Positions 41,760-45,838 are shown, counted from the first letter of the stretch. The stretch: 54,985 nucleotides of DNA from a virus (IMGVR_UViG_3300010396_000013:1-54985); one strand, 5' to 3'. Program-made: numbers and translations. The notes: generated from the sequence alone by a model not told the origin.

Positions 41760-41834
41760 TAAAAGCGGGCCGGCCTTGTGCGCGAACACGCGGCCGACCC
41801 TAACGAAAACGACGAAAGGACCGTCGCATGCGCT
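41760..41834 (-). ncRNA. Candidate SymR-like cis-antisense sRNA (~75 nt)
   Basis: -10 TATCAT at 41841-41846; complementary to the ATG and AAAGGA RBS at 41828; ends in hairpin gggtcggccgcgtg-ttcgcg-cacaaggccggccc followed by gctttt. Confidence 0.5.
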
Positions 41835-41908
41835 GCATCTATGATAAGCTTTCGTGGGGGATGCGATGCCAAGTGCACGCGAATGTGTATCGTGGGGATT
41901 GGGCGTGA
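41828..41908 (+). CDS. Candidate 26-aa leader peptide coupled to the next gene
   Basis: AAAGGA RBS; MRCIYDKLSWGMRCQVHANVYRGDWA; its TGA overlaps the ATG at 41908. Confidence 0.35.
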   Translation: MRCIYDKLSWGMRCQVHANVYRGDWA

Positions 41909-42297
41909 TGGAGCGCAGCAAGTGGTCTGAGCCGGGGGCTATCGCTGCGGGTATCGTGGCCCTCGTTACAGTCGGCGGCTTGGTGTGGTCGGCGGCCACC
42001 ATCAGCGCGGCATCGGCAAATCTCGCCGGCAACTTCGATGACTTCAAGCGCGCCGTGACCACGCAAATTCAGGGGGTCCAAAACCAGATCGCATCCCTCC
42101 CGACACAAGGCGTGCGGCTGGACAATGTCGAGCACGGTCTGGCCGAAGTGCATATCCAAGACGCTAGCCAGCAAGGGGACATCAACATGCTGAAACAGGG
42201 ATTCGCGGTTCTGTCGTCCACCGTCGATACCGTGCGGCATGACGTTCAGGTGTTGCAGGATGCCGCCAATGGGCGGTTGCCGGGCCAGCGTAGATGA
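41908..42297 (+). CDS. Membrane-anchored coiled-coil protein (i-spanin- or holin-like)
   Basis: N-terminal TM helix then coiled coil; directly before a lipoprotein. Confidence 0.55.
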   Translation: MERSKWSEPGAIAAGIVALVTVGGLVWSAATISAASANLAGNFDDFKRAVTTQIQGVQNQIASLPTQGVRLDNVEHGLAEVHIQDASQQGDINMLKQGFAVLSSTVDTVRHDVQVLQDAANGRLPGQRR

Positions 42298-42560
42298 TGC
42301 GCGCAGTGGCCCTGACGCTGCTGCTGGCGGGGTGCGCCGCTCCGGTGGCCCCGCAGGTGCCGGCGCGGCTGCAAGTCTGTCCTGACCCTGTGTATGCGCC
42401 CGTTCCACCGCCGTCGCCGCGCACCGTGGCGCAGCTATTCCGGTGGGGATCGGCGGATGAGATTGCTCGACAGAAGACTGAGGCGGCGCGGCGGGAGTGT
42501 GCGACGCGGCTGGATGAGTTGAACTCGTGGATTCTGCAACATATGAAAACAATGAAATGA
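42294..42560 (+). CDS. Rz1-like o-spanin lipoprotein
   Basis: LLAGC lipobox, Pro-rich, ARRECATRL motif. Confidence 0.7.
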   Translation: MMRAVALTLLLAGCAAPVAPQVPARLQVCPDPVYAPVPPPSPRTVAQLFRWGSADEIARQKTEAARRECATRLDELNSWILQHMKTMK

Positions 42561-42754
42561 TCGGGCTTTTGGTTATGCTGCTGATCGGGCTAATCGTGCT
42601 GTCGCTGTTCTACTACGTCATCACCACGATCCCGCTGCCACCGCCGATCCGGCAAATTGCCGTGGTGATCCTCGTAGTGATCGCGGCGTTATTTCTGATC
42701 TCGCTGTTGATGCCGTATGCCGGCATGGGCGGCGCGCTGGTTTGGAGGCGGTAG
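42557..42754 (+). CDS. Two-TM small membrane protein (holin candidate)
   Basis: Two hydrophobic helices separated by IPLPPPI. Confidence 0.6.
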   Translation: MIGLLVMLLIGLIVLSLFYYVITTIPLPPPIRQIAVVILVVIAALFLISLLMPYAGMGGALVWRR

Positions 42755-42755
42755 A

Positions 42756-42885
42756 TGCTGCGGGCCGGACTCGACGGTGCACCGTGCTGTTCCGACTGGG
42801 CCTCTCGTATTTTGATGCGCGGCGGTAGAGGCCCGTATATCCGCGCTCGATTGCGTGTCTGAGATATTCTCCACGCCGCCGCAGC
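42756..42885 (-). ncRNA. tRNA-like structured RNA, copy B (130 nt)
   Basis: Perfect 7-bp end stem GCTGCGG/CCGCAGC+A; D-like arm GCGTGGA...GACACGC; internal stem GGGCCTCT/AGAGGCCC; T-like stem GTCGG/CCGGC; own promoter. Confidence 0.65.
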
Positions 42886-42891
42886 CACCCG

Positions 42892-42919
42892 ACTATAACC
42901 ACTTCAACGTAGGATGCAA
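42892..42919 (-). promoter_or_regulatory. Sigma70-type promoter for RNA copy B
   Basis: TTGCAT-N16-TATAGT, 6 nt before the end stem. Confidence 0.65.
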
Positions 42920-42921
42920 CA

Positions 42922-43269
42922 ATGAGTTCCACCACGACCATCCCCGTCAATGAAGCGGAGAAAGCATCCGCGCCCGTCAACGCTGCGATCACTGCTGCCC
43001 GCGATATGCCCAGCCTGATCGCCAATCTGAAGACCGTGGACCCGGCGCTTGCGGCTCCGCTGGAAGGCAAGGCGTTGCTGGCCAGCAAAACGCCGTGGGG
43101 CACGCTCGCCGTTGCCGTGGTATCATGGGCGGCTTCACGCTACGGCTTCGGTTGGGATGACCAGACCTGCGCGCTGATCGCCGGTCTCGGCATCGTCGGC
43201 GGCTCCTACCTGATGCGCGCCCTGACTTCATCGCCCATTACGGGCTGGTTCAAGAAGGCAACACCATGA
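42922..43269 (+). CDS. Holin-like membrane protein
   Basis: K.LLASKTPWG followed by two TM segments and a basic C-terminus. Confidence 0.6.
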   Translation: MSSTTTIPVNEAEKASAPVNAAITAARDMPSLIANLKTVDPALAAPLEGKALLASKTPWGTLAVAVVSWAASRYGFGWDDQTCALIAGLGIVGGSYLMRALTSSPITGWFKKATP

Positions 43270-43721
43270 ACATCACCCGCCGCCATTCGCTGATGGCAGC
43301 CACCGCACTCGGCCTCGCCGGCTGCACCACAACCCCGACGCTTTCGCAACTGGCGCAGTATGCGCAGGCCGCTGCCAATGCCGGTGCTGCTGTGCTGGCG
43401 CAGATTCCGAACCCGCCGGCCGTGCTGCAAACCGCGATTGCCGCGCTGAAATCCGCCGCCAGCGCCGTGATCGGTGCGGGCATCAACCCGGCCGCGTCGG
43501 TGGCGCAGCAGGTCTATGACGCGATCAAGGTGGTGCTGCCGCTGGCATCGCCGTTCGTGTCCGCCGTGCCTGGCGTGGGTATCGCGATATCGGCCATTGA
43601 GGCGCTGTTGCCGTTCATCGCGCAGGCGGCTGGGCTGACGGCGGCGGCTGCCTCCGCTCCGACCGTGCCGGGCGTGCCTGTGATGACGGTGCAGCAGGCA
43701 CTGAAGCTGTATGGAGGCTGA
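43266..43721 (+). CDS. Lipoprotein with twin-arginine-like signal
   Basis: MNITRRHSLMAATALGLAGC; Ala-rich amphipathic helices. Confidence 0.7.
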   Translation: MNITRRHSLMAATALGLAGCTTTPTLSQLAQYAQAAANAGAAVLAQIPNPPAVLQTAIAALKSAASAVIGAGINPAASVAQQVYDAIKVVLPLASPFVSAVPGVGIAISAIEALLPFIAQAAGLTAAAASAPTVPGVPVMTVQQALKLYGG

Positions 43722-43723
43722 CA

Positions 43724-44615: not shown

Positions 44616-45064
44616 CAGCCCTAGAAATCGCCGCCCGTCTCCTGCGCCAGTTGGAAGGCTGCGTCCTGACACCCTACCAAGACCAAGGCGGGACATGGAC
44701 CATCGGCATCGGGACGACGCATATCGATGGCCAGCCGGTGACCGGGGAGACGCCGCCGATCGCCACGGAGCAGGCCGAGGCTTACATGCAGGCCGAGTTG
44801 CAGCCCACAGCGGCCGAGGTTGACCGCGAAGCGCCGCCCGATGCCACGGATGCGCAGAGGGCGGCATGCTATTCGTTTGCGTATAACGAGGGCGTTGGCG
44901 CGTTCGCCGGCTCCACGCTGCTGCGGCTATGGCGCTCTGGGGATGTCGAAGGAGCGGCGGCGCAGTTCGATGCCTGGGTGTATGCCGGTGGCCATGTGAG
45001 CAAGGGGCTGGTCAACCGGCGCGCGCTGGAGAAGGCGGTATTTTTGGGGCAGGTGAGGGTTTAG
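44612..45064 (+). CDS. Endolysin, GH24 lysozyme
   Basis: LEGC.L.PYQD.GG.WTIG.G.T, SFAYN.G, STLLR and GLVNRR..E motifs. Confidence 0.93.
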   Translation: MTALEIAARLLRQLEGCVLTPYQDQGGTWTIGIGTTHIDGQPVTGETPPIATEQAEAYMQAELQPTAAEVDREAPPDATDAQRAACYSFAYNEGVGAFAGSTLLRLWRSGDVEGAAAQFDAWVYAGGHVSKGLVNRRALEKAVFLGQVRV

Positions 45065-45311
45065 CCTCCCACTCCCGCGCCGCCTCGGCATGCCGAGCCT
45101 GCGCCGCTTCCCATTCGGCTTCGATGAAATCTTCGCCGTCCAGAATCGCATCGCGGGTGTCGATCAGCGCGTTTTCGAGAGCGCCGGCCCAATCCTCCAG
45201 ATGGGCACGCAACACCGGGTTGGGTTCCGCTGCGGCGATCTGGCGCGCTCGGCGGACGGCATCCTGCTGGATTTCGATGGAGACGCCGGGCGGCGGGTTA
45301 GGGCTTTGCAT
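45012..45311 (-). CDS. Hypothetical protein
   Basis: 99-aa helical ORF downstream of the tRNA cluster. Confidence 0.45.
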   Translation of the reverse strand: MQSPNPPPGVSIEIQQDAVRRARQIAAAEPNPVLRAHLEDWAGALENALIDTRDAILDGEDFIEAEWEAAQARHAEAAREWEAKPSPAPKIPPSPARAG

Positions 45312-45355
45312 GGCAGGAGTGTAGACGGCGGACGGGGAGGCGGGAAGGGGGTAGG

Positions 45356-45478
45356 GATGGCGGGGGAGCGCCGGGCTTCCACCGGCTGCGATCCTGCGCA
45401 CGGGTCTCTGCACGCAAGCCGGACAGATTCCGGCGGATAGGCGCATCAGGTCGGCGCGCGCGCCTGATGCCGACGCAA
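45356..45478 (-). ncRNA. Candidate multi-hairpin RNA downstream of tRNA-Thr
   Basis: Hairpins GCATCAGG/CCTGATGC, GCCGGA/TCCGGC, TGCGTGC/GTGCGCA and GCCGG-TGGAAGC-CCGGC; ends ...CCGCCA. Confidence 0.4.
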
Positions 45479-45480
45479 TT

Positions 45481-45557
45481 TGGTGCCGCCCGAGAGAATC
45501 GAACTCCCACACCCCTGATTACAAATCAGATGCCTTTGCCATCTCGGCCAGGCCGGC
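45481..45557 (-). tRNA. tRNA-Thr(TGT)
   Basis: GCCGGCC...TCTGA-TTTGTAA-TCAGG...GTTCGATT...GGCGGCACCA; one acceptor-stem mismatch. Confidence 0.8.
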
Positions 45558-45559
45558 AC

Positions 45560-45636
45560 TGGTGGCAGAGGTCCGATTCGAACGGACGACCTTCAGGTTA
45601 TGAGCCTGACGAGCTACCGGGCTGCTCCACTCTGAC
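45560..45636 (-). tRNA. tRNA-Met(CAT) with initiator-like body
   Basis: GGAGCAGCCCGGTAGCTCGTCAGG-CTCATAA-CCTGA, GTTCGAATC, CCA end. Confidence 0.88.
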
Positions 45637-45649
45637 ATCCAGCGTAGGC

Positions 45650-45803
45650 TGCTGCGGGCCGGATTGGATACCGGCTGGGTTCGTCAGCTTCGGCTCGCGT
45701 AGATTGCGGGCGCGCGGCATCGCTAATCCGCTTGCACGTCCACGGTAATCCGTGGCCCGACCCAGGTTCGCCTTCCCGCGTGTCCATCCACGCCGCTCGC
45801 AGC
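45650..45803 (-). ncRNA. tRNA-like structured RNA, copy A (154 nt)
   Basis: End stem GCTGCG/CGCAGC+A; D-like arm GCGT-GGATGGAC-ACGC; T-like arm GCCGG-TATCCAAT-CCGGC; ~100-nt structured insert; first element of the tRNA transcript. Confidence 0.65.
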
Positions 45804-45809
45804 GCGCGC

Positions 45810-45838
45810 ATTCTATCCACGCGAAGGCGGCGAGGCAA
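45810..45838 (-). promoter_or_regulatory. Sigma70-type promoter for RNA copy A and the tRNA cluster
   Basis: TTGCCT-N17-TAGAAT, 6 nt before the end stem. Confidence 0.7.

Follow-up and report, generated by a model that had tools for sequence, protein, structure and literature searches.

Morons are independent transcription units that have been added between phage genes, HK97 gene 15 and lambda bor and lom being examples (PMC3594210). The subject here is a 54,985-bp stretch of soil phage DNA (IMGVR_UViG_3300010396_000013:1-54985; the window), and in particular three gaps between the plus-strand genes of its lysis region, g1 (41760-41853), g2 (42755-42921) and g3 (43722-43868), together with a region to the right of the endolysin gene (45356-45838). 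Lambda oop and P22 sar are phage cis-antisense small RNAs that overlap the open reading frame (ORF) or ribosome-binding site (RBS) of their target. A sequence-only reading had taken the four regions for a battery of minus-strand small RNA genes interleaved with the lysis cassette. The three gaps were confirmed, the fourth region was found to be an ordinary phage tRNA operon, and a narrower interpretation is tentatively favored, at somewhat less than even chances, in which the lysis cassette would carry two leftward, non-coding, moron-like units, termed unit A and unit B.

The likeness to morons is that the gaps are extra DNA at places where the genes of related phages abut, as was found for both g3 and g2, that they come with a predicted promoter and terminator, and that their GC content (0.57-0.60) is slightly below that of the surroundings. 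Unlike morons, the gaps hold no protein-coding gene, and the units are merely 147-167 nucleotides (nt) in length. As with lambda oop and P22 sar, there is a short leftward unit among genes of the opposite orientation, with its own predicted promoter and terminator and with the promoter lying over the start of the facing gene; however, the g3 RNA overlaps no ORF, the g2 RNA would do so only via read-through, and there is no sequence or family relationship. The prophage trans-acting small RNAs DicF, IsrK and 24B_1 are likewise non-coding RNAs in prophage accessory DNA, whereas the gaps are without an Rfam match and without a predicted target above shuffled controls. SymR (RF01809) shares with the g1 minus strand a two-hairpin layout and a similar terminator loop, but g1 scores 25.6 bits where the gathering score is 61, has no promoter and has no SymE-like partner. 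A non-exhaustive literature search returned no described antisense-RNA battery inside a lysis cassette. The gaps are a plausible but unproven addition to the phage non-coding and antisense transcription units, and the GTGG-extended promoter motif common to the g2, g3 and tRNA boxes is new here.

The pattern TTGCNT-N16/17-TANN[AG]T was found exactly three times in the window, at 42919..42892, 43869..43841 and 45838..45810 and each time on the minus strand, where a first-order Markov model predicts 0.5 +/- 0.7, the count being post hoc since the pattern was written from those sites. Alignment of the boxes revealed GTGG 1-2 nt upstream of the -10 element in all three, with spacers that are unrelated. 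The extended motif TTGCNT-N9-12-GTGG-N1-2-TANNNT has three exact matches in the contig, none with one mismatch and 11 with two. Across the 4.9-Mb metagenome-assembled genome (MAG) of the host it has four matches, three of them these sites, against three for the reversed control pattern, and the half-motif GTGG-N1-2-TANNNT occurs five times in the contig, again including these three. Chance is unlikely because there are three exact and no one-mismatch matches and because the sites cluster on one strand within 3 kb. With the spacers unrelated, it is the motif itself that is conserved, and this is what a working signal should show. The boxes are read here as a putative single promoter class, of which one member would drive the tRNAs, and the shared motif fits what would be co-ordinated leftward transcription. 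A sigma-54 reading of TTGCAT was rejected, the GG-to-GC spacing being 11-12 nt or absent and not 10.

The -35 boxes of g2 and g3 had been said to overlap the RBS or start of the next lysis gene, and this was borne out: the g2 box (42914-42919) lies over the AGGA/ATG of the gene starting at 42922, and the g3 box (43864-43869) lies over the ATG at 43869. The box in front of the tRNAs is one of just two promoter-like sites detected by a promoter scan of 40500-47000, ranks third in the contig with a generic position weight matrix (PWM) and has p = 0.001 against local dinucleotide shuffles. In g1, by the same shuffling, no promoter above chance was found (p = 0.43).

In unit A, transcription from the g3 promoter would give an RNA of ~113 nt that ends at the g3 hairpin and its U-rich tail. 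Unit B would start at ~42885 with a structured head of ~130 nt, without a terminator of its own, and would run antisense through the 2-TM (two-transmembrane) gene, the o-spanin gene and the i-spanin gene (41866-42754) as far as the tandem terminators of g1. A length of ~1.1 kb is predicted for unit B because two terminator scans found no minus-strand terminator candidate between 42755 and 41827. The two units would be additional DNA that brings a promoter and a terminator of its own, and they are presumably expressed along with the leftward genes on the tRNA and integrase side. The lysis genes could be affected by antisense pairing, or by RNA polymerase that occupies the RBS and start codon of the two facing genes (42922 and 43869).

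Hairpins of the intrinsic terminator type, a G+C-rich stem followed by a U-tract, are predicted on the minus strand twice in g1 and once in g3, with short U-tracts (4 U). On the plus strand just 5 bp of g1 hairpin 1 can form. The relaxed terminator scan is unspecific, having returned 32 plus-strand and 34 minus-strand candidates, many of them intragenic. By eye, the clean plus-strand terminators of the contig (ends at 14854, 17321, 24181 and 34924) carry their T-tails on the plus strand, and T-tail orientation therefore seems informative in this phage. Folding was compared with a contig-wide scan of ~5,490 windows of 80 nt. The 80-nt minus-strand fold of g1 reached -37.5 kcal/mol (z -4.4, equalled by 0 of 200 shuffles) against z -1.1 on the plus strand, and for g3 the values were z -2.2 on the minus strand and z -1.0 on the plus strand.

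The add-on nature of the gaps was studied in relatives X2 to X5, which are contigs from four public runs (DNA or type unknown); no RNA run containing the stretch was found. In X3, a 47-kb contig covers 41766-45062 at ~91-95% identity with all three gaps included; short contigs of X4 and X5 include g2, and most of g3 (43742-43896, with four differences) is also present in X5. The alignments of X3 and X5 both begin at 41766, and g1 therefore travels with the lysis module and not with the tail gene. In X2 and X3 the substitution 41797 A>G turns a minus-strand G-U pair of g1 hairpin 2, a C-A mismatch on the plus strand, into G-C. The X2 contig, of 6 kb, is without g3: position 43714 is joined to 43894 via 31 nt, a junction that reads as the stop codon of the lipoprotein gene overlapping the apparent start codon of the p248 homologue. 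In the same contig 1,024 other letters replace 42524-43263, which holds the 2-TM gene, g2 and p115.

Distant loci give a similar picture. At eight loci identified through p248, which matched in all eight while 0 of 13 other window proteins did, the upstream ORF ends 0-4 nt from the p248 start in five, and at loci with a p115 homologue the upstream gene abuts in 2/2. Identity to p248 does not exceed 62% among its nearest protein relatives. From these comparisons g2 and g3 appear to be lineage-specific additions, the distant loci agreeing. A DNA search with 41700-45480 gave matches in 114 of 401 family genomes, none of them within a gap among the matches listed, and in 77 genus genomes it gave just the genome itself and one endolysin match at 68%. 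Exact gap patterns had 0 matches in viral contigs, and no relatives of p248 or the i-spanin were detected in viral or metagenome contigs. No second copy of g1, g2, g3 or the tRNA leader was present in the host MAG, and a repeat or mobile-element reading was rejected on that ground.

The ORFs of the gaps are without coding signal, their log-likelihood ratio (LLR) being -0.28 to +0.01 per codon compared with 0.12-0.47 in the neighboring genes, and small proteins were rejected for this reason. At gathering thresholds no Rfam family was found in g1, g2 or g3, whereas the same scan of 45356-45838 yielded two tRNAs. At E <= 10 nothing was found in g2 (42740-42930), the tRNA clan included, and in g3 there was just a 9.7-bit terminator-like match. 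No trans target emerged: when RNA duplex energies were computed with every start region of the contig, shuffled RNAs did at least as well, in a test that ignores accessibility and is hence weak.

Several observations weigh against two active leftward units. The sequence-only reading had described three good promoters, and the pattern does stand at all three sites with a convincing score in front of the tRNAs, but the g2 and g3 boxes taken singly are marginal (p = 0.045 and p = 0.079 against local dinucleotide shuffles, either strand scored). The PWM frequencies are Escherichia coli values and not those of this host, and the extended motif was read off the same three sites, which makes its statistics partly circular. 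It had also been held that each gap contains a structured minus-strand unit; the gaps are real, but clear minus-strand structure is limited to g1, and even there the strand asymmetry of 10 kcal/mol is ~1.6 standard deviations (6.4) contig-wide and unexceptional. The g2 fold is weak (z -1.9 minus, -0.5 plus). For the g3 hairpin the plus strand is the better paired one, with a U-G pair in place of the C-A mismatch of the minus strand, and 43701-43780, which contains it, is among the five most structured plus-strand windows of the contig. The short g2 and g3 units overlap no lysis ORF, and silencing would therefore need read-through or promoter occlusion. Moreover, Rho could end a non-coding antisense transcript of ~1.1 kb early.

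The fourth region had been presented as a further structured minus-strand unit. It is instead an ordinary phage tRNA operon, consisting of a promoter, a leader and the genes for tRNA-Met(CAU) and tRNA-Thr(UGU), which lie 2 nt apart and were identified by both Rfam and ARAGORN. Like other phage tRNA operons it has canonical tRNA genes, here two, behind a sigma-70-like promoter, and it differs only by its long leader (~165 nt), both ends of which recur in g2. Many deposited phages contain a similar tRNA-Met at 70-90% identity, and 20/20 of the matches listed cover only the tRNA part. Compared with shuffles the leader shows no excess of structure (z +0.4 and -1.24); it has no Rfam match and shows no tRNA-clan match at E <= 10 in 45637-45845. 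Its start (45768-45809) resembles 45 nt of the host MAG (G001:C433:5337-5381, locus L053) at 87% identity, E 1.7e-6; the match sits at the 3' end of a hisB-like ORF, and chance or a capture scar is possible. A second tRNA-Thr(TGT) gene, which differs at many positions from the minus-strand copy, is at 17217-17291 on the plus strand. Behind it is a bidirectional terminator (17296-17321) with the same 8-bp stem as the g3 hairpin. Between the minus-strand tRNA-Thr and g3 the relaxed scan found no clean minus-strand terminator, and because of this, read-through from the tRNA operon over the endolysin and p248 genes is conceivable.

The g2 element and the tRNA leader share their first ~17 transcribed nt and a ~27-nt block at the 3' end with 14 identical letters. 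Their local alignment scores 70, compared with 32 +/- 5.9 for shuffles (maximum 54.5 in 500) and 54.5 for the best other place in the contig. The similarity ends ~8 nt before the tRNA-Met start point. The interiors are unrelated (p 0.48), and homology of the g2 interior with the leader was rejected on this value. The conserved ends can pair with each other (GCUGCG...CGCAGCA), and all three units end in C(C/T)CGCAGCA. ARAGORN, in default and relaxed modes, calls no tRNA in g2 or in the leader, and no T-loop-like arm of 5 bp and 7 nt is present in the computed fold of either. The shared ends may be processing signals or a duplication scar, and we do not choose between these. A much bolder proposal, quite a long shot, is that three leftward promoters of one private motif class would lock the lysis cassette, giving tRNAs plus, by read-through, antisense RNA to endolysin and p248, the ~113-nt RNA, and an antisense RNA of ~1.1 kb that spans the holin-like and spanin genes and stops at the tandem terminators of g1, with the ~130-160-nt leaders constituting a new processed phage RNA family.

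The main rival to units A and B, a serious one though less likely in our estimation, derives g2 and g3 as relics from tRNA cassettes that have decayed or been deleted; g1 would be a terminator left at a module joint, and any transcripts would be by-products without a role. In this account g2 would be a promoter and leader head whose tRNAs have been deleted, and g3 a promoter, a decayed tRNA and a terminator. It would explain why the g2 and g3 promoters are of the same family as the working tRNA promoter, why g2 matches the 5' end of the leader and again almost up to the tRNA-Met and then stops, and why the units share an ending. Moreover, apart from itself, the g3 hairpin is matched best within the contig by the terminator behind the other tRNA-Thr; the similarity is weak, but the g3 minus strand aligns with the tRNA 3' end and that terminator over ~52 columns (36 identical by manual count) with a score of 41-43 against a background of ~34-36.5. 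That the gaps are missing or replaced in relatives, with nothing conserved found outside the lineage, also agrees with relics. On the other hand, no tRNA-like signal was detected in g2 or g3 at E <= 10 or by relaxed ARAGORN, and conservation is confined to the motif while spacers and interiors are unrelated, a pattern more like that of selected signals than like neutral decay of recent copies. It could also be that the hairpins act in cis in the late plus-strand mRNA, as 3' stabilizers, processing sites or leaky terminators between sub-modules, and that the promoter look-alikes arose by chance in AT-richer spacers containing RBS and start signals. The greater plus-strand stability of the g3 hairpin, in a top-five window, is in line with this, as are the lower GC of the gaps, the marginal p values of the single promoters and the coincidence of both -35 boxes with ATGCAA before or at ATG, a shared start-site context. 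Even so, we consider it rather improbable: the T-tails are on the minus strand, unlike those of the other plus-strand terminators of this phage, a GTGG element with three exact and no one-mismatch matches is hard to obtain by chance, g1 folds significantly on the minus strand only, and the ancestral g3 site is a stop-start overlap at which no spacer was needed.

The sequence-only reading taken in full, that is, four small RNA genes forming a co-ordinated layer in the lysogen that silences or times lysis or decoys host defense, is very doubtful. Part of it stands, namely the shared promoter family, the overlap of two -35 boxes with the RBS or start of a facing gene, the leftward T-tailed hairpins and the add-on character of g3. 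The rest does not, as one unit is a plain tRNA pair, g1 is without a promoter, and neither a trans target, nor a family match, nor any sign of a host-defense decoy was found. Its premise of a missing CI was not established either, for helix-turn-helix regulators, which may be CI-like, are encoded at 3267-3482 on the plus strand (phrog_35, transcriptional repressor, E 1.1e-6) and at 12229-12672 on the minus strand (phrog_4779, E 6.1e-9). A more particular idea for g1 is a SymR-like type I antitoxin RNA that starts at ~41834 and covers the RBS of a short ORF (26 codons, 41828-41908), to which the i-spanin is coupled. RF01809 does align over its full length (1-77) with 41764-41834 on the minus strand (161-nt search, E 0.0033), PtaRNA1 reaches 15.8 bits, and hairpin 1 has a loop complementary to the AAAGGA that precedes the ATG at 41828. 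The score is nevertheless far under the gathering threshold; an equal-sized control hairpin region (11580-11740) reached up to 28.6 bits with animal microRNA families, which is spurious, and a second control up to 15.9 bits. Controls score as high, and the SymR match is therefore within noise. In addition, g1 has no promoter above chance and its candidate -35 is altered in X2 and X3 (41870 C>G), the 26-codon ORF is without coding signal (LLR -0.013 per codon), and the downstream protein has no SymE domain, its sole Pfam match being DUF3584 at 0.056. A SymR-like antitoxin is thus extremely improbable.

Table 1. Predicted signals, RNA elements and genes of the lysis region and the adjoining tRNA operon (MFE, minimum free energy; TM, transmembrane segment)
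Feature	Position	Strand	Basis or remark
g1 hairpin 2 (41767-41800) with GCUUUUAU tail, predicted leftward intrinsic terminator	41758..41800	-	-20.4 kcal/mol
g1 hairpin 1, 7-bp stem, loop UCCUU, U-rich tail	41809..41827	-	Terminator scan; in MFE structure
i-spanin-like gene	start 41866 or 41908, end 42297	+	Coding LLR
Rz1/LysC-like o-spanin	42294-42560	+	PF23793 LysC, E 2.1e-5; phrog_456, E 3.5e-8
2-TM protein	42527-42754	+	Gene between o-spanin and g2
g2 putative transcribed element, ~130 nt, 7-bp 5'/3' closing stem, no own terminator	42756..42885	-	
g2 promoter-like box TTGCAT-N16-TATAGT	42892..42919	-	GTGG upstream of -10; contig rank 15 (PWM)
p115, holin-like, 2 TM	42922-43269	+	
Lipoprotein gene	43266-43721	+	
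Unit A candidate RNA, ~113 nt, wholly inside g3	43834 to 43720	-	Predicted promoter and terminator
g3 hairpin 43731-43753, extended stem to 43764, with CUUUUGCU tail	within 43720..43834	-	Terminator scan
g3 promoter-like box TTGCAT-N17-TAAGAT	43841..43869	-	GTGG upstream of -10; contig rank 21 (PWM)
p248	43869-44615	+	phrog_19005
Endolysin, Phage_lysozyme	44612-45064	+	E 1.5e-34
tRNA-Thr(TGT)	45481-45557	-	Rfam RF00005, 53.5 bits (45484-45557), gathering score 29; ARAGORN
tRNA-Met(CAT)	45560-45636	-	Rfam RF00005, 57.2 bits (45563-45636), gathering score 29; ARAGORN
tRNA-operon leader, ~165 nt	45637..45803	-	Both ends shared with g2
tRNA-operon promoter TTGCCT-N17-TAGAAT	45838..45810	-	Inside 3' end of GIY-YIG-like ORF 45813-46340

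The window is identical to a contig of the host MAG, which is of Acetobacteraceae, over 10,744 compared bases, and no circular-genome overlap was found between the contig ends. A run of plus-strand genes extends from ~17.4 kb to 45.06 kb (terminase, portal, tail) with the lysis region at its end (Table 1). At the left edge of that region, a GTG at 41854 is lost (41855 T>C) in all four public runs, and the coding signal of the i-spanin is stronger from 41908 (0.337 versus 0.267 per codon). A start at 41866 or 41908 is thus probable for the i-spanin, and g1 would then be longer. X3 has 320 extra letters at the junction of the i-spanin and o-spanin genes (42284-42294). The 2-TM protein p115 and the lipoprotein gene downstream of it recur at two further Acetobacteraceae loci: the lipoprotein gene comes directly after the p115 homologue in L043, where the pair lies just downstream of a lysozyme-like gene, and in L042 a 306-aa ORF separates the two. 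Because this pairing recurs, p115 is probably the holin or a lysis partner.

To the right of the endolysin all features are leftward, comprising a probable 99-aa gene, the two tRNAs, the GIY-YIG-like ORF and an integrase. The 99-aa gene (45012-45311, minus strand; coding LLR 0.21 per codon) overlaps the endolysin 3' end by 53 nt and had no family match in protein-family searches. X3 has 806 other letters in place of 45062-45370. Next to the integrase (46488-47597, minus strand) there is a plus-strand tRNA-like fragment with a long variable arm (46382-46479), which scores a sub-threshold 27.2 bits with the tRNA-Sec model, is not called by ARAGORN and has 30-32-nt matches at 91-93% in two host MAG contigs; it is probably the attP core. 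Over the whole contig, the stability of 80-nt structures peaks, for both strands, at 11611-11700 (-51 to -55 kcal/mol), where a long hairpin lies just beyond a 690-aa ORF (9524-11596) and draws spurious microRNA-family matches. Many of the promoter-like sites that score highest, on either strand, fall in an AT-rich island at 15100-15820 (GC 0.48 versus ~0.62).

Whichever reading holds, a quarter of the claim made from the sequence at the outset concerns ordinary tRNA genes. If g2 and g3 are relics, they would indicate that tRNA cassettes come and go at module joints and leave promoters and terminators behind. If instead the g2 and g3 promoters are active, as units A and B suppose, the gaps would be compact, protein-free morons. 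The spanin and holin-like genes would then be quieted in the lysogen by antisense or occluding transcription, beyond the repressor alone, and a promoter motif would be defined for an uncultured Acetobacteraceae phage-host pair.

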